From Escherichia phage vB_EcoM_SYGD1, in sequence record MW883059: a DNA stretch of 64,000 nucleotides, one strand, 5' to 3'. A model generated the notes under the pieces. That model did not search any database. It saw only the letters and a program-made list of their open reading frames with translations, and was not told the DNA's origin. This document shows, in pieces, positions 1,722 to 48,943 of this stretch. The translations under genes were made by a program, and so were the position numbers. The first letter of the stretch is position 1, and each line of letters begins with the position of its first letter.

Positions 1722-3976
1722 TTAATGTTATCAAAAGTAGTGGTGTTTCTCAGAGCTTTGACCCGCAAAAAATTATTAAAGTTTTATCTTGGGCAGCTGA
1801 AGGAACATCAGTAGATCCTTATGAATTATATGAAAATATTAAATCTTATCTCCGTGATGGAATGACAACTGATGATATTCAGACTATTGTCATTAAGGCC
1901 GCTGCGAATTCTATTTCGGTTGAAGAGCCTGATTATCAATATGTAGCTGCACGTTGTTTAATGTTCGCTCTTCGTAAGCATGTTTATGGGCAGTATGAAC
2001 CACGTTCATTTATTGACCATATTTCTTACTGTGTAAATGAAGGTAAATATGACCCTGAATTATTGTCAAAATATTCAGCAGAAGAAATTACATTTTTAGA
2101 ATCAAAAATTAAGCACGAGCGGGATATGGAATTTACTTATTCCGGGGCGATGCAATTAAAAGAAAAATATCTAGTTAAAGATAAAACCACTGGTCAAATT
2201 TATGAAACTCCACAGTTTGCATTTATGACTATTGGAATGGCATTGCATCAAGATGAACCTGTTGATAGATTAAAACATGTTATCCGTTTTTATGAAGCGG
2301 TATCTACTCGACAGATTTCATTACCAACTCCTATTATGGCTGGTTGCCGTACTCCAACTCGGCAGTTTAGTTCATGTGTTGTTATTGAGGCAGGCGATTC
2401 ACTGAAGTCTATCAATAAGGCTTCTGCTTCAATTGTTGAATATATCTCTAAACGCGCTGGAATTGGTATTAACGTTGGTATGATTCGTGCTGAAGGTTCT
2501 AAGATTGGCATGGGTGAAGTACGCCATACTGGTGTTATTCCTTTTTGGAAACATTTTCAGACTGCTGTTAAATCATGCTCACAGGGTGGAATTCGTGGCG
2601 GCGCTGCTACTGCTTATTATCCTATTTGGCATTTGGAAGTTGAAAATCTTCTTGTTTTGAAAAATAACAAAGGCGTAGAAGAAAACCGTATCCGTCATAT
2701 GGATTATGGCGTCCAGTTGAATGATTTGATGATGGAACGTTTTGGAAAGAACGACTACATTACTTTGTTTAGTCCGCATGAAATGGGTGGCGAGCTTTAT
2801 TATTCTTATTTTAAAGACCAAGACCGTTTCCGCGAATTATACGAAGCAGCAGAAAAAGACCCTAATATTCGCAAAAAGCGTATTAAAGCCCGTGAACTAT
2901 TTGAATTACTCATGACTGAACGATCAGGAACAGCAAGGATTTATGTGCAGTTCATTGATAATACGAATAATTATACTCCGTTTATTCGTGAAAAGGCACC
3001 TATTCGTCAGAGTAACTTGTGTTGTGAAATTGCTATTCCAACAAATGATGTGAATAGTCCTGATGCTGAAATTGGATTGTGTACTCTCTCTGCATTCGTA
3101 CTAGATAATTTTGACTGGCAAGACCAAGATAAAATTAATGAATTGGCAGAAGTTCAAGTTCGTGCTCTTGATAATCTGTTGGATTACCAAGGATATCCAG
3201 TTCCTGAAGCAGAAAAAGCTAAAAAGCGTCGTAACCTCGGTGTAGGTGTTACCAACTATGCAGCTTGGCTGGCAAGTAACTTTGCTTCTTATGAAGATGC
3301 TAATGATTTAACACATGAACTATTTGAGAGATTACAGTATGGACTCATTAAAGCATCCATTAAGCTCGCAAAAGAAAAAGGACCTTGCGAATATTATTCA
3401 GACACTCGTTGGTCTCGAGGCGAATTACCTATCGACTGGTACAATAAAAAGATTGACCAAATCGCAGCTCCAAAATACGTTTGTGACTGGTCGGCGCTGC
3501 GGGAAGACCTTAAGCTCTTTGGCATCCGTAATAGCACATTATCAGCACTTATGCCATGTGAGTCATCTTCCCAAGTTTCTAACAGTACAAACGGTATCGA
3601 GCCTCCACGTGGACCAGTCTCTGTTAAAGAATCAAAAGAGGGTTCCTTTAATCAAGTCGTGCCCAATATTGAGCATAACATAGACCTATATGATTATACA
3701 TGGAAATTAGCTAAGAAAGGTAATAAACCTTATCTTACGCAGGTAGCTATTATGCTGAAATGGGTATGTCAATCAGCTTCAGCGAATACATACTATGACC
3801 CGCAGATTTTTCCAAAAGGAAAGGTTCCAATGTCAATAATGATTGATGACATGTTATACGGATGGTATTATGGCATTAAAAATTTCTATTATCATAATAC
3901 CCGTGATGGTTCTGGTACTGATGATTATGAAATAGAAACTCCTAAAGCCGACGATTGTGCAGCGTGTAAATTGTAA
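1712..3976 (+). CDS. nrdA: ribonucleoside-diphosphate reductase large subunit (class Ia)
   Basis: 754 aa; GAGGA RBS; active-site NLCCEIA; C-terminal redox Cys pair ...ADDCAACKL. Confidence 0.95.
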   Translation: MQLINVIKSSGVSQSFDPQKIIKVLSWAAEGTSVDPYELYENIKSYLRDGMTTDDIQTIVIKAAANSISVEEPDYQYVAARCLMFALRKHVYGQYEPRSFIDHISYCVNEGKYDPELLSKYSAEEITFLESKIKHERDMEFTYSGAMQLKEKYLVKDKTTGQIYETPQFAFMTIGMALHQDEPVDRLKHVIRFYEAVSTRQISLPTPIMAGCRTPTRQFSSCVVIEAGDSLKSINKASASIVEYISKRAGIGINVGMIRAEGSKIGMGEVRHTGVIPFWKHFQTAVKSCSQGGIRGGAATAYYPIWHLEVENLLVLKNNKGVEENRIRHMDYGVQLNDLMMERFGKNDYITLFSPHEMGGELYYSYFKDQDRFRELYEAAEKDPNIRKKRIKARELFELLMTERSGTARIYVQFIDNTNNYTPFIREKAPIRQSNLCCEIAIPTNDVNSPDAEIGLCTLSAFVLDNFDWQDQDKINELAEVQVRALDNLLDYQGYPVPEAEKAKKRRNLGVGVTNYAAWLASNFASYEDANDLTHELFERLQYGLIKASIKLAKEKGPCEYYSDTRWSRGELPIDWYNKKIDQIAAPKYVCDWSALREDLKLFGIRNSTLSALMPCESSSQVSNSTNGIEPPRGPVSVKESKEGSFNQVVPNIEHNIDLYDYTWKLAKKGNKPYLTQVAIMLKWVCQSASANTYYDPQIFPKGKVPMSIMIDDMLYGWYYGIKNFYYHNTRDGSGTDDYEIETPKADDCAACKL

Positions 3977-4707
3977 TGAATTATCAAAAAATCTATAATG
4001 ACCTAATTTCCCGAGCTCAGGCTCGGGAACATTTATCCGAGTATAAAGAGACACATCATATAGTCCCTAAATGCATGGGAGGTTCTGATGATAAAGAAAA
4101 TTTAGTTGAATTAACAGCTAGAGAACATTTTATAGCGCATCTATTACTATGCAAGATAAATGAAGGCCATTTTGGTCTTGCCTCTGCGTTAACGTTAATG
4201 GCAACAGATAAAGCTGGTAATAGAATTAATAACAGATTGTATAGCTTGCACAGAAAATTATTTGCTAAAGCTAATTCTGATTTCTTTAAGAAATATTGGA
4301 AAAATAATCCTCATCCTAGAGGAATGTTAGGCAAGCATCATAAAAACGAAACTAAACAACATGTATCAAACGTGAATAGGTATGCATGCCCATCTATCGA
4401 AATACATAAATTCTCATTAGATGGGGATTTCATAGAAACCTTTCACTCTATTGCCGCAGCGTCCAGGTCAGTTAATGGAAACGGGTCAAATATCAAATAT
4501 TGTGCTGAGGGTAAATTTCAATATGCCTATGGATTTCGATGGGCATATCAACTTGATGCAAAGTTTGACAAAATACAACCAAGAGATTATAAAGGAATCC
4601 GCGGTAAGAAATGGATTAATAATGGAAGTGAATGCACGCTTATAGGTAAAGATGATATTATACCGCCAGGTTGGAAACGCGGCAGAATTTTAAAGAGGAA
4701 AAATTAA
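3976..4707 (+). CDS. HNH homing endonuclease, free-standing (mobE-like, between nrdA and nrdB)
   Basis: 243 aa; start overlaps nrdA stop (TAATG); HNH motif HHIVPKCMGGSDDKENLVELTAREHFIAH. Confidence 0.8.
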   Translation: MNYQKIYNDLISRAQAREHLSEYKETHHIVPKCMGGSDDKENLVELTAREHFIAHLLLCKINEGHFGLASALTLMATDKAGNRINNRLYSLHRKLFAKANSDFFKKYWKNNPHPRGMLGKHHKNETKQHVSNVNRYACPSIEIHKFSLDGDFIETFHSIAAASRSVNGNGSNIKYCAEGKFQYAYGFRWAYQLDAKFDKIQPRDYKGIRGKKWINNGSECTLIGKDDIIPPGWKRGRILKRKN

Positions 4708-8935: not shown

Positions 8936-10138
<1,203 letters not shown>

Positions 10139-30097: not shown

Positions 30098-30113
30098 AAG
30101 GGCCGAAGCCCTT
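30098..30113 (-). promoter_or_regulatory. GC hairpin between the HNH gene stop and the uvsW.1 RBS
   Basis: AAGGGC-CGAA-GCCCTT overlapping the HNH stop codon. Confidence 0.4.
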
Positions 30114-30804
30114 ATAAATTAACTGTTTTTCTAAGTATTCTTAGTTTGTACATTGATAATCCAGTAGCTTTAGAAGCATCTTTCATGCATTTATACTTAA
30201 CACCATTTACTTCTATAGGTTTAGCAGCTGGGTTATTAGCTCCTGAATTATCTGGCATGTTATCTTTAATTTTCTGAATAGATTTAGCGGAATGTTTCCT
30301 TCCATACATGCCATTATTTTTACCTGATTGATTGATAGAATGCAATCTTTTAGCTTCTTCAGTCCATTTTGTTGGGTTCATTCTTTTAGTTTTACTAATT
30401 TTACTTCCCCACGTAATTGGACGATTTTTCATGAGTTTTGACATATATTGTTTATGTTCTTCCGTATGGTGTTTTCCGTAAAATGGATTACCTTCACCTG
30501 ATTGAAGTTTTGCCATTTTACGACGTTCCCAGGCGTAAGATTTATTAACGTGTCTTTCATGAGTATTTGAATTCATTCCCATACATATAACGGCTTTAAT
30601 TATACCGTAATGGTTTGGATGAATTTTAGCTAAAAGTTTATGAGCTATAAAATGCTCTTCAGCTGTTAGTTCTACCAAATTACACTTATCATCTGTACCA
30701 CCCATACATCTAGGAATTATATGATGAGTTTCAGTGTATCCATTAAGGCGAGCCCGATTCTGGGCTCTATTAATTAAATTATCATATATTAATTTATAAT
30801 TCAA
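30112..30804 (-). CDS. HNH homing endonuclease, free-standing, inserted between uvsW and uvsW.1; TTG start
   Basis: 230 aa; HNH motif HHIIPRCMGGTDDKCNLVELTAEEHFIAH; TTG start 7 nt after GAGG and overlapping uvsW TGA. Confidence 0.75.
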   Translation of the reverse strand: MNYKLIYDNLINRAQNRARLNGYTETHHIIPRCMGGTDDKCNLVELTAEEHFIAHKLLAKIHPNHYGIIKAVICMGMNSNTHERHVNKSYAWERRKMAKLQSGEGNPFYGKHHTEEHKQYMSKLMKNRPITWGSKISKTKRMNPTKWTEEAKRLHSINQSGKNNGMYGRKHSAKSIQKIKDNMPDNSGANNPAAKPIEVNGVKYKCMKDASKATGLSMYKLRILRKTVNL

Positions 30805-32312
30805 AGTTTAACCTCTTTCATCACATAATTAAACTTCTCATCAGCATAACGCTGAATACGATCAAGTCCATGTTTTAAAAGATAGTTTAAATGCGAGTAT
30901 TTTTTAGAAGATGTTTTTGATTTAGAAACTACGCCCGCGTCATCTATGAGGTCCCAGACTGTTGCGATTGTTTTAGAACCATGCTTACGTAATACGCGAC
31001 CTATTGTTTGCAATACAATAATTTTAGATTTAACGCCGTGCGCTAAAACAACGTGATGCAGATTTTTAACTGAAATACCAGTAGAAAATACACCATAACT
31101 AGCTACTATAATTATTCCTTTACCGTTTTCAGCTAAGGTTTTCATTATGTTTCGAGTTTCGGTATCAACTTCCCCTGATACGTAATAAACTTTATCGTAT
31201 TCATTTTTAATTAAATCGAAAATAGCTTTACCATGTGATACATGCTTAAACATGACAAAAGCGTTTTCATCTTTTTGCGCAAGTTTAATAGCTAATTTAG
31301 CGATCCATTTATTTCTTTTACTGAGCCCAGTAATAATTTTTATTTCTTCTTGGTAAGTTTTTCCCTTTAATTTAGTAGTGAACTCATCAGGATAACGAAG
31401 AAAAATACTATTAATTTTTAACTCAGTTACTTGTCCATCTTCCATTAATTTAGAAGTCGTTACTGGCTTAAATATTTCACCAAACATTCCAACATACTGC
31501 ATGATATTAGCTTTGCCATCACGTAATGAACCTGATAGACCAAATTTGAACATGCAGTTATTTAAACCTGATATAATAGATGAAATACTTTTTCCTGTAG
31601 CAAGATGGCATTCATCATTCATCATCATTCCAAATTGTGAAAACCATTCTTTTGGTTGTTTTACTACAGTTTGCCATGTACCAACAATTACCGGTGCATC
31701 ATTTTTATATTTATCATCTTTTGATGCTCCGCCACCAATTTTCTTTATCATTGCATGACTGAATAAACGATAATCAACAAAGTCATCAGCCATCTGAGTT
31801 GTCAGAGCAGTTGTTGGAACAATGATAAGAATTTTACCTTCATAATTTTCCAAATAATAACGTGCAAGCAAAGCTTGAATTAAAGATTTACCTGCGGATG
31901 TTGGAAGATTAAGAATTCTACGACGATTAACTAATCCTTCGAACACTGCATCTTTTTGATACCAATGCGGTTCAATTCTTTTATTTCCTGAATAGATTTC
32001 TAACTTAGAAAGCCATTCATCAAAATCTTTTCTTGATAATTCTTCTTTTTCGTTAATTTGTGGGTCAATCCAGGCTTTATAGCCAAAGTTATCACAGAAC
32101 TTTTTAATTTGCCCGACTAAGCCGAACGGAAGAAGGCGATTATAATCTAAAAGACGGATTCGTCCATCCCAGTGACCATATTTGTATTTCGGATTAAAAC
32201 GATACCCATCAGCTTCAAAGCTAAAGAAATCACGGAGTTCATGAAATGTACTTTCTTCACAATCAATTCTCACGTGACTAAAATCATAAAAATGTACTTT
32301 AATGTCAGTCAT
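30801..32312 (-). CDS. uvsW: UvsW DNA/RNA helicase (SF2)
   Basis: 503 aa; MTDIKVHFYDFSHVRIDCEE...; Walker A LPTSAGKS, DExH-like NDECH. Confidence 0.9.
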   Translation of the reverse strand: MTDIKVHFYDFSHVRIDCEESTFHELRDFFSFEADGYRFNPKYKYGHWDGRIRLLDYNRLLPFGLVGQIKKFCDNFGYKAWIDPQINEKEELSRKDFDEWLSKLEIYSGNKRIEPHWYQKDAVFEGLVNRRRILNLPTSAGKSLIQALLARYYLENYEGKILIIVPTTALTTQMADDFVDYRLFSHAMIKKIGGGASKDDKYKNDAPVIVGTWQTVVKQPKEWFSQFGMMMNDECHLATGKSISSIISGLNNCMFKFGLSGSLRDGKANIMQYVGMFGEIFKPVTTSKLMEDGQVTELKINSIFLRYPDEFTTKLKGKTYQEEIKIITGLSKRNKWIAKLAIKLAQKDENAFVMFKHVSHGKAIFDLIKNEYDKVYYVSGEVDTETRNIMKTLAENGKGIIIVASYGVFSTGISVKNLHHVVLAHGVKSKIIVLQTIGRVLRKHGSKTIATVWDLIDDAGVVSKSKTSSKKYSHLNYLLKHGLDRIQRYADEKFNYVMKEVKL

Positions 32313-32341
32313 GTCTAAATACCATGTAATAAATATATCTA

Positions 32342-37080: not shown

Positions 37081-37107
37081 TGCGCTTTCCTTTTGGTTTA
37101 TATGATT

Positions 37108-37115
37108 TATTTATA
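37108..37115 (-). promoter_or_regulatory. late promoter for gene 24
   Basis: TATTTATA on + strand (TATAAATA on - strand) 28 nt upstream of gene 24 ATG. Confidence 0.55.
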
Positions 37116-37130
37116 CCATAAAAACAACTA

Positions 37131-37148
37131 AAGGGACCCGAAGGTCCC
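37131..37148 (-). terminator. terminator after gene 23
   Basis: AGGGACC-CGAA-GGTCCCT with T-run on - strand. Confidence 0.6.
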
Positions 37149-37163
37149 TTAAATCGTCAAAGA

Positions 37164-38729
37164 TTAGATACCTTTAACATATACACGGCGGAAGTAAGCG
37201 TTTTTACCAAGGCTATTCAGAATAGAAGGCATACCGCTTTGAATGCGAGAAGCCGGAGCCTGAGCAGCGGATTCTGCAAATGGGTTGATACCGATACCGT
37301 AACGAGTTTTGAATCCCATTACTGGTTGGAAGTTCTTCGGATCGGAACCACGCAGCGGAGTCAGAGCTACATATGGAGCATAGTAAATACCAGCATCCAT
37401 TTCGTTCGGACCTTTATAACCTACGGTGAAATAATCCTGTTTAGCATACTGGTCGATATATACACGGTATTTACCACCCAGAACACCAGCAAATACTGAC
37501 TTGGTAGTATCAGTGTTAAAGCCAGTAGCCAGACCTTGTGCAGCATAAGAAATGCCGGTATCAACTGAAGCCAGAACGTTAACTACGTTACGGGAAGCGA
37601 TAATGAAGTTACCTTCACCACGACCGGTCTGACGAGCAATTTCAACTGCTTCTTTGTCAATCTGGAACAACAGAGCTTTAAAGGATTCACCTGCCCAGCG
37701 AGCACCACGAATATCGATTGGGTCCTGGAAGTCAAATACACCAGCTTTAGAACCCGGAGTCAGGGTCATACCAGATTTACCAACCTGAGCGGAGTAGTTA
37801 ATCCAATCAACAACTTCGCGGTTGATTTCCAGCATAATTTCGGTAGCCAGAATACCAGACAGTTCAGCATCAGCATCCATACCGTGAACAGCGCGAAGGT
37901 CTTGTGCTAATTCAATAGAGTAAGCAGCTTTCAGCTGACGAGATTTAGCTTCGATAACTTGCTTATCGATACGGAAGCCCATTTCATTCCATGGGTTATC
38001 GGTAGAACCGTTAAAACCTTCCTGAAGTTCAGCGATAGAAGTAGCCATACCTTCAGCGATTTCTACCAATACGCCAGCTTCCATTTGTTTCTTAATTTCA
38101 GCATCTAATTTAGCTGCGTCAGATGCGCCTGAATCAATTTGTTTAACTTCTGTAGCTTGCAGATATACTGTACCAGTTTCCTGGAAGAAGTGAGTGTAAA
38201 TAGTTCCGACTTCAAGAGTATCACTTGCTTTCAAAGCAGCGAATTTCTTAGCAGCACCCTGACCAGAGAACATTGCATCTGGACCATACATTGGGTGGAA
38301 TGCTTCTTTAGCACCGGCAGCGATTGGGTCTTTACCATATACTGCGCGCAGTGCGAATACCTGGCCAGTCGGGCTGTTCATTGGCTGAACACCACAAATA
38401 TCGAAAGCAATCAGGTTAGGAATAGCACGACGTACCATACCCATAACAGCTGGGCCAATCTGAGTTACTGCTCCAGAAGTCTGACCTGCAGCGATGTTGG
38501 TAGCATTGTAACCGTGGTCACCACCGATTTCAGCTTCTGTTAAGAAAGAACCGAATGCCTGAGCAATTTTTTCGTCTTTATATTCCGGAGCTGTCTGGAA
38601 ATCTTTTTCCTGGTTTTCAAAGATTTTAGCGATAATCGCTTGTTTGCTATTAGCAATTTCCGGTAAACCTTCACCTTCCAGTAATGGCTTCCATTTGTTC
38701 AAAAGTTCAGCTTTAGTTTTGATAGTCAT
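37164..38729 (-). CDS. 23: major capsid protein
   Basis: 521 aa MTIKTKAELLNKWKPLLEGEGLPEIANSKQAIIAKIF... Confidence 0.97.
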   Translation of the reverse strand: MTIKTKAELLNKWKPLLEGEGLPEIANSKQAIIAKIFENQEKDFQTAPEYKDEKIAQAFGSFLTEAEIGGDHGYNATNIAAGQTSGAVTQIGPAVMGMVRRAIPNLIAFDICGVQPMNSPTGQVFALRAVYGKDPIAAGAKEAFHPMYGPDAMFSGQGAAKKFAALKASDTLEVGTIYTHFFQETGTVYLQATEVKQIDSGASDAAKLDAEIKKQMEAGVLVEIAEGMATSIAELQEGFNGSTDNPWNEMGFRIDKQVIEAKSRQLKAAYSIELAQDLRAVHGMDADAELSGILATEIMLEINREVVDWINYSAQVGKSGMTLTPGSKAGVFDFQDPIDIRGARWAGESFKALLFQIDKEAVEIARQTGRGEGNFIIASRNVVNVLASVDTGISYAAQGLATGFNTDTTKSVFAGVLGGKYRVYIDQYAKQDYFTVGYKGPNEMDAGIYYAPYVALTPLRGSDPKNFQPVMGFKTRYGIGINPFAESAAQAPASRIQSGMPSILNSLGKNAYFRRVYVKGI

Positions 38730-42550: not shown

Positions 42551-43042
42551 TTATTCCCAATAATCGAGAGCGAGAGTTACTTCAAATGTTTGGATTTCAT
42601 TGTTTGAATCCCAATCTAACTGAAGTTCACCCACGTTAGTAGGCCACAGGCCTTTAATTTCGACTTCTTTTGTTACAGTTTTAGCGTCACGAGCATATTG
42701 GCGTACAATAGCGCTCTTTTTATACTCTGCTGGTTTTCCACCAGTAATTTCGTTTCCTTGCCCAGCAGCAATGCTTTGCCAGTCAACAAACTTCTGGCGT
42801 GCATCATGCGCCTCATCATTCATTACTGTAATAGTCCAGTCATCGAATGTACGATCGCCTGCTACGTTAATTTTACGGTTCATAAATCCGACTGGAATTT
42901 TTTCTACAATACCAGCTGGTAAAGCAGTGGCTTTACATTGAAACGTAAAATTTTGTCCAAGATAAGAAATTTCTACTTGGAATAAGTTAGGTCGAGCAAA
43001 ATCACCAGATTCAAACGCTCGTGTTACATCATCTACAAACAT
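42551..43042 (-). CDS. 19: tail tube protein
   Basis: 163 aa MFVDDVTRAFESGDFARPNLFQVEISYLGQNF... Confidence 0.92.
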   Translation of the reverse strand: MFVDDVTRAFESGDFARPNLFQVEISYLGQNFTFQCKATALPAGIVEKIPVGFMNRKINVAGDRTFDDWTITVMNDEAHDARQKFVDWQSIAAGQGNEITGGKPAEYKKSAIVRQYARDAKTVTKEVEIKGLWPTNVGELQLDWDSNNEIQTFEVTLALDYWE

Positions 43043-43055
43043 ATTAGCCTCTGTA

Positions 43056-43063
43056 GTATTTAT
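43056..43063 (-). promoter_or_regulatory. late promoter for gene 19 (proximal copy)
   Basis: TATTTATA on + strand 14 nt upstream of gene 19 ATG. Confidence 0.5.
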
Positions 43064-43115
43064 ATCCCTATGTTTAACCTAGGGCATATAGAATTAAAGA
43101 ATTAAGGATATAGTG

Positions 43116-43123
43116 TATTTATA
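43116..43123 (-). promoter_or_regulatory. second late-promoter octamer (distal copy, next to the HNH insert)
   Basis: TATTTATA on + strand with flank similar to the proximal copy. Confidence 0.45.
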
Positions 43124-43124
43124 T

Positions 43125-43142
43125 GGCCTGCCGAAACAGGCC
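43125..43142 (-). terminator. hairpin after the HNH gene
   Basis: GGCCTG-CCGAAA-CAGGCC 8 nt downstream of the HNH stop. Confidence 0.5.
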
Positions 43143-43149
43143 TTTAGAA

Positions 43150-43755
43150 TCATTCTAGTAAATCCCAAAGATCTACGCTATTTCTTTTTGACTTTTCTCG
43201 GTTAGATTCCCAAGTGATTATTTCTAAATTTTTTACGCTTGCTATAATTTCCGGCGGAATTAAATTATCAAATCCATATTTGATAGATACTTTATGATCG
43301 AGTTGGTAAGCACCTTCTACACCGCACACTCCTATTTTATCAGCATTCGGCCATTTTGACCAAATTTTTCTTATTTTAGCTGACTTAGTTATAGAATGAA
43401 CTCTACTAGCATATAATGCAAACTCTTTTCTTTTACCAGTCCATCGAGGATGTTTATCGCCTCTTTGCCATGGTCTGCTTATTCCGGATTGAACTTCCGA
43501 ATTTTTAATAGCAACTTGTTTAATGCTGCATTTTCTACACGCATGTGTGGGTGTTCTATTTAAAAGCTGAATGCTTCTACTAAATTTAATACCGCACAAA
43601 TCACATTTAGCGTCAACTATTTTATTACTATTCTTTGGCATTAATTCTATTGGAACAGATACTGTATCATGATATGATACTTCATATCCTAGAATTGCCG
43701 ACCACATTTTTGAATGATTTCTTGGTTTTATTGTAACAAACTTAGAAATAATCAC
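43150..43755 (-). CDS. HNH endonuclease, free-standing, inserted between genes 18 and 19
   Basis: About 201 aa from GTG 43755 (GAGGA 5 nt upstream; first ATG at 43707); Cys pairs CDLCG...HACRKCS; HNH core QLDHKVSIKYG...NLEIITWESNREKSKRN. Confidence 0.75.
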   Translation of the reverse strand: MIISKFVTIKPRNHSKMWSAILGYEVSYHDTVSVPIELMPKNSNKIVDAKCDLCGIKFSRSIQLLNRTPTHACRKCSIKQVAIKNSEVQSGISRPWQRGDKHPRWTGKRKEFALYASRVHSITKSAKIRKIWSKWPNADKIGVCGVEGAYQLDHKVSIKYGFDNLIPPEIIASVKNLEIITWESNREKSKRNSVDLWDLLE

Positions 43756-43772
43756 TTGTTTCCTCGAGAATA

Positions 43773-43786
43773 GGGGCCGAAGCCCC
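43773..43786 (-). terminator. hairpin immediately after the gene 18 stop
   Basis: GGGGC-CGAA-GCCCC 9 nt downstream of the tail sheath stop codon. Confidence 0.5.
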
Positions 43787-43794
43787 ACAATCAA

Positions 43795-45774
43795 TTAACC
43801 TGCAAGACCAGTTAACTCATCGAAATCTGCACCAGTAGCAGTTGCGACGAAATTAAGTTGGATATAATTTATACTACGAGCCGGTTGGATGTAGAATGTT
43901 GCAACAAACTCATTTCTATCAATTACTGACGGAGTGTTATTTGTTGTATCGCAAACTACACGATATTCATAAATTCCACCGAGAGCTTTAATTCCCTGTA
44001 AGTATTGGGCAGTTTCTGTGCGGAATGATGAACGAGTAAACGCGTTGTTTAATTCGAACAAACGATATTTTGAACTACGTCCGATATTCGTTTTCAACAT
44101 ATTAAACAGACGACGAACGTTAATACGATCAAATGGAGAAGGAACAGAAGTAGCTGTTTTATCACCATACAATACGTAACCATCACCACCTGTACCAGTT
44201 ACTGGGTTGATAGCTTCTTGATATAAACGGTCGCGCTGAGCTTGGCGAGTTTCAATAGCAAGTTTAATAACGTTAAGAATCTGGCCGCGATTATAACCAG
44301 CTGGAGACATCCAAGTCTGAGAAACGTTATCGGTTCTTGCACATAAACCGGCAATATCAGCTGCTAATGGAACCCAGCGATTGACATCATTATATTTGTC
44401 ATACTGATATTTGTAGTTACCATCAATTGCTGCGTAGGTTGAACTGATATTAAAGTTATTATCAGTGTATGAACCTGTTGCGGTTCTCCAATTGACTAAG
44501 TTATCAACAGCGCGAGTTACAGGAATTCCAACTACAGTTTCGCGCGGTGGTGAGCACAATACTAAGCAATCCTGGCGAGCATCCCCAATTGAAACGACGT
44601 GTTTTTGGACAGTAGATGCTGTTTCTAAAGATTCGCCGGCACAAGAACCCGCAATAAACAACTGAACGTCAACAGATTCGCGGTCAGCAAAGAAGTCCCA
44701 AGCTTCCATCAAATCTCCTGCTGTTACTTCAGCATTTGATGATAATCCACCAGACAGAGTTAAAATTCCAGAGAATCCTTCTGGCCAATTTTGTGCAGTT
44801 GCAAAAATATATTCTGAACCGCCTTTTGCGAAAAAGTCATCAATATAGATGTTACTGTCATAAATGTCTTTTTCACCATGCTTTGTTGAAAGAACAATAC
44901 TTTGAACAATAGCATCATTACGGCGAACTATAATAGCGTATTGTGAATCAGTTTGTGGTCCATATCCAAACACTGCCTTAGCAGTAGATGCGCGTGTTCC
45001 GCCACCTGGATAAATTGGGAGTAATGCAGAAGCACCTTTTGCGTAGTCAGCTTTAGATACGATTTCAATTTCGATTTTATCGCCCAACTCGCCTGGATAA
45101 AGAGCTACTACTCCTGGAATTCCATATTTTTCGAGATTTGCTTGAAATTCAACCGCTGTCATAGCAGCTTCGGCATTTTCAATCTCAGCTAATAAAATAC
45201 CGGAATCAGTAATGATTTTTCCAAGAGTTATTACTGCAGCTAAACCAGATGAAGACGAAGAAATTTCCGCGGTCCAATTAGAACCTAACGCTGGATACTC
45301 ACCGACTTCTTTCGCTTTAGCGATAATTTTTGCAGTAGGAATATTAATTTTCTTAATTTTTCCATCAGCATCTACTTCGGTAATTTTACCTTCCGTTTCA
45401 ATGTCTTCTGAAACATACTTAACTGTGATTTTATCTCCAACCGCGTAGTTACTACCTGGGGTAGAAATAGTGTATTCAATATTACCAGCAATCGGAGATG
45501 AGTTTTTAGCGGTATCTCTATCGACAGCACGCACAACTCGCAAATCATTTCCGTATTGTAAGAAATTCATTGCAGACATAAAATAGTCAGCAGTTTCAGC
45601 TGTAGGTTGACCAAAAGTATTAACTAAATCTACTTCATTTGTAACCTGTTTGATCTGAAAAGCAGGACCCCACTGGAATTTACCGGCCAAAGCTGCTGTA
45701 CCAGTAGAGTTATTAACCACGGTGCTTTGAACCGTAGTTTCTTTGAGCTCAATGCCCGGAGATAATAAAGTCAT
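43795..45774 (-). CDS. 18: tail sheath protein
   Basis: 659 aa MTLLSPGIELKETTVQSTVVNNSTGTAALAGKFQWGP... Confidence 0.95.
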   Translation of the reverse strand: MTLLSPGIELKETTVQSTVVNNSTGTAALAGKFQWGPAFQIKQVTNEVDLVNTFGQPTAETADYFMSAMNFLQYGNDLRVVRAVDRDTAKNSSPIAGNIEYTISTPGSNYAVGDKITVKYVSEDIETEGKITEVDADGKIKKINIPTAKIIAKAKEVGEYPALGSNWTAEISSSSSGLAAVITLGKIITDSGILLAEIENAEAAMTAVEFQANLEKYGIPGVVALYPGELGDKIEIEIVSKADYAKGASALLPIYPGGGTRASTAKAVFGYGPQTDSQYAIIVRRNDAIVQSIVLSTKHGEKDIYDSNIYIDDFFAKGGSEYIFATAQNWPEGFSGILTLSGGLSSNAEVTAGDLMEAWDFFADRESVDVQLFIAGSCAGESLETASTVQKHVVSIGDARQDCLVLCSPPRETVVGIPVTRAVDNLVNWRTATGSYTDNNFNISSTYAAIDGNYKYQYDKYNDVNRWVPLAADIAGLCARTDNVSQTWMSPAGYNRGQILNVIKLAIETRQAQRDRLYQEAINPVTGTGGDGYVLYGDKTATSVPSPFDRINVRRLFNMLKTNIGRSSKYRLFELNNAFTRSSFRTETAQYLQGIKALGGIYEYRVVCDTTNNTPSVIDRNEFVATFYIQPARSINYIQLNFVATATGADFDELTGLAG

Positions 45775-45802: not shown

Positions 45803-48943
<3,141 letters not shown>

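Follow-up and report, generated by a model that had tools for sequence, protein, structure and literature searches.

ORF19.1 of T4-like phages, a probable free-standing HNH homing endonuclease gene between tail sheath gene 18 and tail tube gene 19, and the recoded gene 18 patch that accompanies it

Marker exclusion and mosaicism in the T-even phages are shaped by free-standing homing endonucleases, of which, to our knowledge, only a handful have been studied, namely the Seg and Mob enzymes, SegH and Hef. We report a computational analysis of ORF19.1, an open reading frame (ORF) lying between gene 18 (tail sheath) and gene 19 (tail tube) in a 64,000-nucleotide (nt) stretch of Escherichia phage vB_EcoM_SYGD1 (MW883059), hereafter the window, which represents the late-gene region of a T6-like Tequatrovirus and is read on the minus strand. 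Our reading, to which we assign a probability of roughly 0.6, is that ORF19.1 is a free-standing HNH (ββα-Me) homing endonuclease gene of a family specific to the 18|19 intergenic slot of T4-like phages. The case is built on an insertion polymorphism, the fold and catalytic motif of the protein, the conservation of the slot, purifying selection and a linked, recoded patch at the 3' end of gene 18.

Alignment of the window with T4 (NC_000866) bears out the proposal of an initial annotation, made from the letters of the window alone, that genes 18 and 19 are adjacent in T4 and that the ORF is an insertion here. In T4, which lacks the ORF, the gene 18 stop is followed by the 8 nt TACGGTGC and then directly by ATTCTAAAGGCCTGTTTCGGCAGGCCATATAAATA…GATATAAATACTACAGAGGCTAATATG; in the window an insert of 644 nt takes the place of these 8 nt, and the last A of the TGA stop of ORF19.1 is the first base of the sequence common to both genomes. 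No target-site duplication was found at the insert in this junction comparison. All of the elements that the annotation had listed are present (an upstream hairpin, GAGGA with a GTG start, a downstream hairpin and two boxes reading TATAAATA), the first box exactly where it was placed and the second displaced by one base. The further idea that the repeated promoter octamer is the footprint of the insertion, brought in or duplicated with the cassette, is refuted, because T4 without the ORF holds both boxes and the downstream hairpin in a stretch (ATTCTAAAGGCCTGTTTCGGCAGGCCATATAAATA…GATATAAATACTACAGAGGCTAATATG) that is 100% identical to the window; of the combination of ORF and paired boxes in a reference genome, which would have spoken against an insertion, T4 has the boxes and not the ORF. 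We also rejected the two hairpins as cassette ends: the upstream type is general after gene 18, and the two are unrelated in sequence. Many genera have a GC-rich hairpin immediately 3' of the gene 18 stop, in occupied and empty genomes alike, and it is best read as a 3'-end element of gene 18. The cassette brings a replacement gene 18 hairpin, and the original hairpin now lies 3' of the ORF. The parts of the locus are as follows.

43151 to 43794, minus strand: insert-specific DNA of 644 nt (upstream hairpin, ribosome-binding site and ORF), from the window-T4 alignment
43773 to 43786, minus strand: cassette 5' hairpin GGGGC-UUCG-GCCCC (GGGGCTTCGGCCCC), directly 3' of the gene 18 stop; also present in the RB3-type allele described below
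43761 to 43765, minus strand: Shine-Dalgarno sequence GAGGA, 5 nt ahead of the GTG start; kept in the RB3-type allele
43150 to 43755, minus strand: ORF19.1, 201 amino acids, GTG start (43755), TGA stop
43528 to 43605, minus strand: CxxC…CxxC zinc-binding module of the N-terminal domain (C51, C54, C73, C76), with invariant or near-invariant Cys
43192 to 43299, minus strand: HNH (ββα-Me) core, with D153-H154 at the end of β1, N176 before β2 and N185-R186-x-K188 in the helix
43125 to 43142, minus strand: native gene 18 3' hairpin GGCCUGU-UUCG-GCAGGCC (GGCCTGTTTCGGCAGGCC), part of the T4 backbone and outside the insert
43116 to 43123, minus strand: late-promoter box 1, TATAAATA, native to T4
43057 to 43064, minus strand: late-promoter box 2, TATAAATA, native to T4, 15 nt ahead of the gene 19 ATG

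Occupied and empty junctions were counted database-wide with junction-spanning BLAST probes. An 81-nt probe centred on the T4 empty junction matched 501 phage records, 382 uninterrupted and about 117 split by an insert, and a probe running from the gene 18 end into the beginning of the cassette found 117 occupied records; scans of IMG/VR and metagenomes with gp19 added only about 12 close junctions. Among these Tequatrovirus records presence and absence are base-precise, with identical boundaries in genomes whose flanks are ~97-99% identical, and the ORF is, as first supposed, optional. The same pattern recurs in a second genus, in which coliphage VR26 is occupied and its relatives are empty; Jiaodavirus and Karamvirus, too, include both carriers and non-carriers. 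Only two occupants are found at the Tequatrovirus junctions: a T6-type ORF (69 records at an amino-acid identity of at least 95%) and an RB3-type ORF (about 48 records, including RB3, RB5-7, RB10, HY03, Sf22, pSs-1 and HP3). The two proteins are 50% identical overall, whereas the accompanying gp18 proteins are ~99% identical. The alleles share their leader, first ten codons and last ~70 codons at ~90% nucleotide identity and, because only codons ~11-130 are unalignable between them, it appears that the catalytic module has been kept and the presumed DNA-binding module exchanged.

Homologues beyond Tequatrovirus, with 30-66% identity, occupy the same slot (gene 18, ORF, gene 19) across Straboviridae, in Klebsiella phage Merci (Jiaodavirus), Acinetobacter phage AbTZA1 (Hadassahvirus), Serratia phage CBH8 (Winklervirus), Aeromonas phage AS-zj, Shewanella phage Thanatos-2 and VR26; in Sinorhizobium phage phiM12 the homologue lies directly 3' of gene 18. 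A profile of the C-terminal domain retrieved 396 proteins, mostly of 190-200 amino acids; the three distant matches that were looked up come from environmental T4-like contigs, where the sheath and tube genes flank them, and one match, a fusion protein with DUF7487, is located elsewhere.

Some individual records merit mention. Enterobacter phage vB-EclM_KMB20 (OL828291) is the sole record of 242 with two tblastn places for ORF19.1 and may hold a second copy of the family, which would be the first sign of it outside the 18|19 slot in a Straboviridae genome. The gene 18-ORF19.1 junction also occurs at 92-99% identity in MG010123 ('Staphylococcus phage SAJK-IND'), OR584013 and PV654520 ('Pseudomonas phage …'); these entries have probably been mislabelled or contaminated. 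In Thanatos-2 the hairpin that follows gene 18 (AGGGGCTTCGGCCCCT; 2462-2501 of the Thanatos-2 locus, L011) has the same core as the T6/RB3 cassette hairpin at 43773-43786 of the window, and the flanking genes of Thanatos-2 are only ~64-70% identical as proteins; the common core could be a coincidence or a shared part of the cassette.

The zinc-finger-like Cys pairs and HNH core first noticed in the translation hold up well on comparison. Residues Q151, D153, H154, N176, L177, W182, N185, R186 and K188 are invariant in 42 homologues, with identities down to 34%, as are C51, C54 and C73, with C76 nearly so; D153, H154, N176, N185, R186 and K188 are invariant also in a 17-sequence alignment of the C-terminal domain. 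In a confident AlphaFold model (mean predicted local distance difference test score, pLDDT, of 89.8) the strands Y150-H154 and L177-T181 are followed by the helix W182-K188, which is the ββα-Me arrangement, with the Asp-His pair ending the first strand. The protein thus shows the two antiparallel strands and following helix of a ββα-metal fold together with the conserved residues expected of a catalytic His, a structural Asn and a metal-ligand Asn or His in the helix, and the top matches of a fold search were HNH proteins only. We consider the ββα-Me (HNH) fold to be well supported, and the D-H…N…N site is regarded as a variant of the Cas9/McrA-like kind, in which we take D153 and N185 to be metal ligands and H154 the general base by analogy with Cas9. 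The N-terminal zinc-finger domain (residues ~11-130) is presumed to bind DNA and the C-terminal D-H…N…N domain (residues ~131-201) to nick or cut it.

Formally the protein belongs to no curated HNH family, as none in Pfam or NCBIfam matches above its cutoff. HNH_4 is matched below threshold in 2 of 29 members (E = 0.0056) and DUF4379, a 'treble clef zinc finger', likewise below threshold in 13 of the 29, and some relatives carry the JGI label 'McrA'. A profile search of Protein Data Bank sequences gave only spurious zinc-finger, mS66 and leucine-rich-repeat matches, the PADLOC models of defence systems matched neither allele at E <= 0.1, and BLASTP gave no real similarity to T4 MobE (E = 1.3); ORF19.1 lies outside the Mob family. 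The ORF19.1 family is absent from Pfam, NCBIfam and PADLOC, yet is present in about a quarter of Tequatrovirus genomes and in the same slot in many T4-like genera.

All 13 copies of the ORF that were examined are intact, including that of Shigella phage sb2, for which a truncated pseudogene, suggested by its annotation, was considered and rejected. Among T6-type alleles the ratio of non-synonymous to synonymous substitution rates (dN/dS) is 0.08; when T6-type catalytic domains are compared with RB3-type ones it is 0.14, and the nucleotide diversity of the ORF, 1.7%, is that of its flanks. Judged by these substitution patterns, the protein is functional and under purifying selection, and the gene has been resident in carrier lineages for about as long as the flanks have diverged.

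Comparison of 13 occupied and 14 empty Tequatrovirus junctions locates a further feature in gene 18. The gene 19 side is almost invariant over 130 nt; on the gene 18 side, substitutions are tightly clustered at 52-87 nt upstream of the stop, covering the codons for A-R-S-I-N-Y-I-T/Q-L-N-F-V.

43846 to 43881, minus strand: recoded 12-codon gene 18 patch A-R-S-I-N-Y-I-Q-L-N-F-V, a candidate recognition or cleavage site in its putative immune form
43864 to 43871, minus strand: TATAAATT inside the patch, a 7/8 match to the late-promoter box
Patch, T4-type (empty sites): GCT AGA AGC ATT AAC TAC ATT ACC TTA AAC TTC GTA
Patch, T6-type carriers: GCT CGT AGT ATA AAT TAT ATC CAA CTT AAT TTC GTC
Patch, RB3-type carriers: GCG CGC AGT ATA AAT TAT ATT ACT TTG AAT TTC GTC

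The T6-type patch differs from the T4-type at 12-14 of its 36 nt, yet by no more than one amino acid (T to Q), and gene 18 is otherwise ~97% identical. In the 60.5 kb of window-T4 alignment this is the sole isolated, gap-free, essentially synonymous micro-patch; the other four hits of the patch scan were two indels and two amino-acid-changing stretches of gene 23. The T6-type patch is found in all 68 of the 68 occupied records with a T6-type ORF, and the T4-type patch in 246 empty records. In the second genus, VR26 is ~97% identical to its empty relatives through gene 18 up to the same codons and is densely recoded from there to the insert, with the first ~15 codons of gene 19 recoded too. These are patterns of flanking divergence in populations, namely elevated synonymous divergence on both sides of the insert in VR26 and a patch on the gene 18 side in Tequatrovirus; VR26 provides an independent replicate of the patch-insert pattern. 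All of the T4-like phages examined, phiM12 and the environmental contigs among them, conserve the encoded peptide PARSINYITLNFVA, and conserved sequence is the type of target that homing enzymes favour. Across genera, carriers tend to ATA-AAT-T(A/T)T and non-carriers to AT(T/C)-AAC-T(A/T)C, a trend with exceptions in both directions on which we do not rely, and an argument that the T4-type patch follows the codon preferences of gene 18 and that the recoded patch is anomalous in codon usage was dropped as gene 18 overall prefers AAT and TAT. The 36-nt patch that tracks occupancy is, on this evidence, a candidate cleavage or immunity site, and its observation is new here.

Two other divergent places in the window were recorded during this comparison. 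In gene 23 (38123-38238), two short stretches depart strongly from T4, amino-acid changes and small indels included, in surroundings that are ~97% identical; they may correspond to a part of the major capsid protein that is exposed at the surface and variable. In pseT, at 9821-9856 (T4 ~134285), lies a second isolated and hyperdivergent patch of 36 nt, with 14 mismatches and flanks that are 5-7% divergent, some 600 nt from a window-specific insertion of ~296 nt (8938-9234) at the pseT/pseT.1 boundary, and might together with that insertion form another indel-plus-patch pair like the one at gene 18.

From the evidence at the 18|19 slot we infer nuclease activity, the position of a cut, immunity and biased inheritance, which would combine as intronless homing in the following way. 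Expression of ORF19.1 would be late, through transcription that continues from gene 18 across the cassette hairpin (GGGGCUUCGGCCCC) and, late in a mixed infection, the enzyme would nick or cut the genome of any co-infecting relative without the gene. Most probably the cut would fall in the conserved 3' end of gene 18 encoding PARSINYITLNFVA, 52-87 bp from the insertion point, and in T4-type DNA in or near 5'-GCTAGAAGCATTAACTACATTACCTTAAACTTCGTA-3'; a target spanning the insertion point itself, …GGTTAATACGGTGC|ATTCTAAAGG…, is a possible alternative. Repair by recombination with the carrier genome would then transfer the patch, the following 52 nt and the cassette to the recipient, and carriers would escape self-cleavage through the synonymous recoding of the gene 18 stretch. 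Empty genomes with a resistant-looking patch, and the linkage of each allele to its own patch, fit the gain-resistance-loss dynamics that elements of this kind should show. A more ambitious version, which we hold only tentatively and think rather doubtful, has an ancient, slot-faithful lineage tracking one extremely conserved coding stretch, PARSINYITLNFVA, of the essential sheath gene across the entire T4 superfamily, environmental phages included, with an arms race between carriers and non-carriers seen as synonymous recoding and swaps of the DNA-binding domain, and with purifying selection reflecting use as a weapon against the sheath gene of rival phages and not mere selfish persistence. 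With a defined 36-bp candidate site, natural alleles that look sensitive or resistant and two natural enzyme variants with swapped DNA-binding domains, the hypothesis of homing lends itself to a direct test. For phylogenetic work, the 18/19 junction and the gene 18 3' end make poor markers.

A number of observations pull against homing, and they are collected here with the explanations they favour. The link between patch and occupancy has exceptions: about 71 empty records (RB51, RB68, RB14, AR1, wV7 and others) carry a T6-like patch, T2 is empty with an RB3-type patch, and sb2 combines an intact RB3-type ORF with a T4-like patch bearing two substitutions, one of which changes a conserved Arg to Ser. 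The patch could be a neutral mosaic segment linked to the insert by its 52-nt proximity, as those empty genomes would suggest and as the abundance of mosaic segments in T4-like phages allows (4% of 36-nt windows have at least 11 mismatches), or else a variant late promoter within gene 18, TATAAATT, that drives the ORF. The T6-type and RB3-type patches both read AGTATAAATTAT; the TATAAATT within it agrees with TATAAATA at 7 of 8 positions. Late promoters do vary in T4, where 18 of the 50 listed deviate from the consensus and some of the variants are active (PMC2988020). We find either account of the patch somewhat unlikely. VR26, AbTZA1 and Thanatos-2 read GATAAATT, with two deviations from the consensus, and a promoter in the patch would gain nothing over read-through from gene 18 because its transcript must still cross the cassette hairpin; a neutral segment sits poorly with an isolated synonymous micro-patch beside the insert that is unique in 60 kb and has the same codons recoded in another genus.

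The gene itself might instead be an accessory gene of benefit to the phage, ancestral in T4-like phages, passed down vertically and subject to repeated loss, whose HNH nickase serves a phage function such as interference with competitors or DNA processing, its scatter arising by deletion and ordinary recombination. Occupation of the same slot in very distant T4-like phages, the strong purifying selection on copies that are all intact, and an ORF diversity equal to that of the flanks are each what this account expects. We nevertheless judge it unlikely, given the base-precise presence and absence among near-identical genomes with only two alternative occupants, the exchange of the N-terminal domain between alleles, the incongruence between the divergence of the ORF proteins and that of gp18, and the co-conversion-like tracts on either side of the VR26 insert. 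It is less probable still that the cassette was moved by hairpin- or promoter-mediated modular shuffling, of the kind reportedly proposed for PeSL cassettes in T4-type phages (cassettes that are the subject of PMC2839356 and PMC4122927), or by simple homologous recombination within the flanks, with no role for its own nuclease and perhaps with a protein that is a zinc-finger DNA-binder with a vestigial HNH motif. The hairpins at both ends of the ORF and the composite of stem-loop and promoter on its 3' side would agree with shuffling, but the downstream hairpin and promoters are native to T4, the upstream end has no repeat and the two hairpins are of unrelated sequence, while catalytic residues that are invariant across at least 42 diverse homologues are hard to reconcile with a vestigial motif.

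Seen as a homing endonuclease gene, ORF19.1 can be compared with SegA-G and MobA-E, the T-even free-standing enzymes of intronless homing, among which the HNH enzymes MobA and MobE introduce a nick into a single strand (PMC2988022). It resembles these in being a small intergenic gene between conserved genes, sporadic among close relatives, with a cleavage site expected outside the gene itself, in a neighbouring conserved gene, and with flanking co-conversion, the last features being predicted for ORF19.1. Its candidate site is ~50-90 bp from the gene, however, whereas those of the Seg enzymes are 'hundreds or thousands' of bp away (PMC2988022), and the Mob enzymes, like the mob-like ORFs of the window itself, have an N-terminal HNH domain with an HH…N…H motif where ORF19.1 has the reverse order, the zinc finger being N-terminal and the D-H…N…N core C-terminal. 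A D-H…N…N active site also characterises the Cas9 HNH domain, Pfam HNH_4 and the McrA-type nucleases; by score ORF19.1 is not a Pfam member and, unlike the Cas9 and McrA systems, it has another partner domain at its N-terminus and lies in neither a CRISPR nor a restriction context. The small HNH nicking endonucleases of Geobacter (Gme, 4h9d), phage GVE2 (5h0o) and T5 (SciA, 9qgx) are 8-18% identical to ORF19.1 and have no zinc-finger N-terminal domain of its type. HNH proteins of the GVE2 type work with the terminase in packaging, and there is no indication of this for ORF19.1.

The gene is the ORF19.1 of T6, which has been in GenBank since the 1990s, and Repoila et al. (1994, EMBO J) are said to have described its polymorphism. 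The earlier-recorded gene is the same one (97.7% nucleotide identity), annotated without a function as 'ORF19.1', and PHROG 5104 ('unknown function') matches the protein with E = 9e-83. The original interpretation of an optional, probably mobile HNH endonuclease gene survives in this light, stripped of its footprint and of its implied novelty. The label given to the gene varies from record to record ('hypothetical protein', 'putative head morphogenesis protein', 'HNH endonuclease', 'homing endonuclease', 'type II restriction endonuclease'), and the labels of a head morphogenesis protein and a type II restriction endonuclease are unsupported. Full-text literature searches found no functional study of ORF19.1; Petrov et al. 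2010 counted one unnamed 'other HNH' gene in T6, which may be ORF19.1. On the reading that we favour, ORF19.1 is an uncharacterised member of a well-known kind of element, the free-standing HNH homing endonucleases, to which we add the fidelity to one slot across T4-like phages, the swapped N-terminal domain and the candidate target or immunity patch in gene 18.

Phage T6, Yersinia phage PST, ECML-134 and many others match the 2 kb around ORF19.1 at 97.6-99.3% identity. The neighbouring genes are as follows.

45806 to 47638, minus strand: gene 17
43795 to 45774, minus strand: gene 18 (tail sheath), 659 amino acids, 97-99% amino-acid identity to the gp18 of T4 and T6
42551 to 43042, minus strand: gene 19 (tail tube), 163 amino acids
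40893 to 42479, minus strand: gene 20

Elsewhere in the window are two mob-like ORFs that look quite different from ORF19.1. One, of 230 amino acids (30112-30804, minus strand), has a canonical mob-like HNH N-terminus (ETHHIIPRCMGGTDDKCNLVELTAEEHFIAH) and fills a window-specific insertion of ~680 nt right after uvsW (near T4 114170), where T4 is without an endonuclease gene. The other, of 243 amino acids (3976-4707, plus strand; ETHHIVPKCMGGSDDKENLVELTAREHFIAH), lies between nrdA and nrdB in the slot of T4 mobE; ~560 nt of it are unalignable with T4, and it is therefore a different endonuclease gene. Nothing in the window corresponds to the T4 genes segC, segD and segE or to the T4 introns of nrdB (with I-TevIII) and td (with I-TevI). 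As the alignment jumps over these T4 genes, at breakpoints at ~63507, ~37092-37153, ~32306-32326, ~5380 and ~620, the endonuclease complement of the window differs from that of T4 at almost every site.
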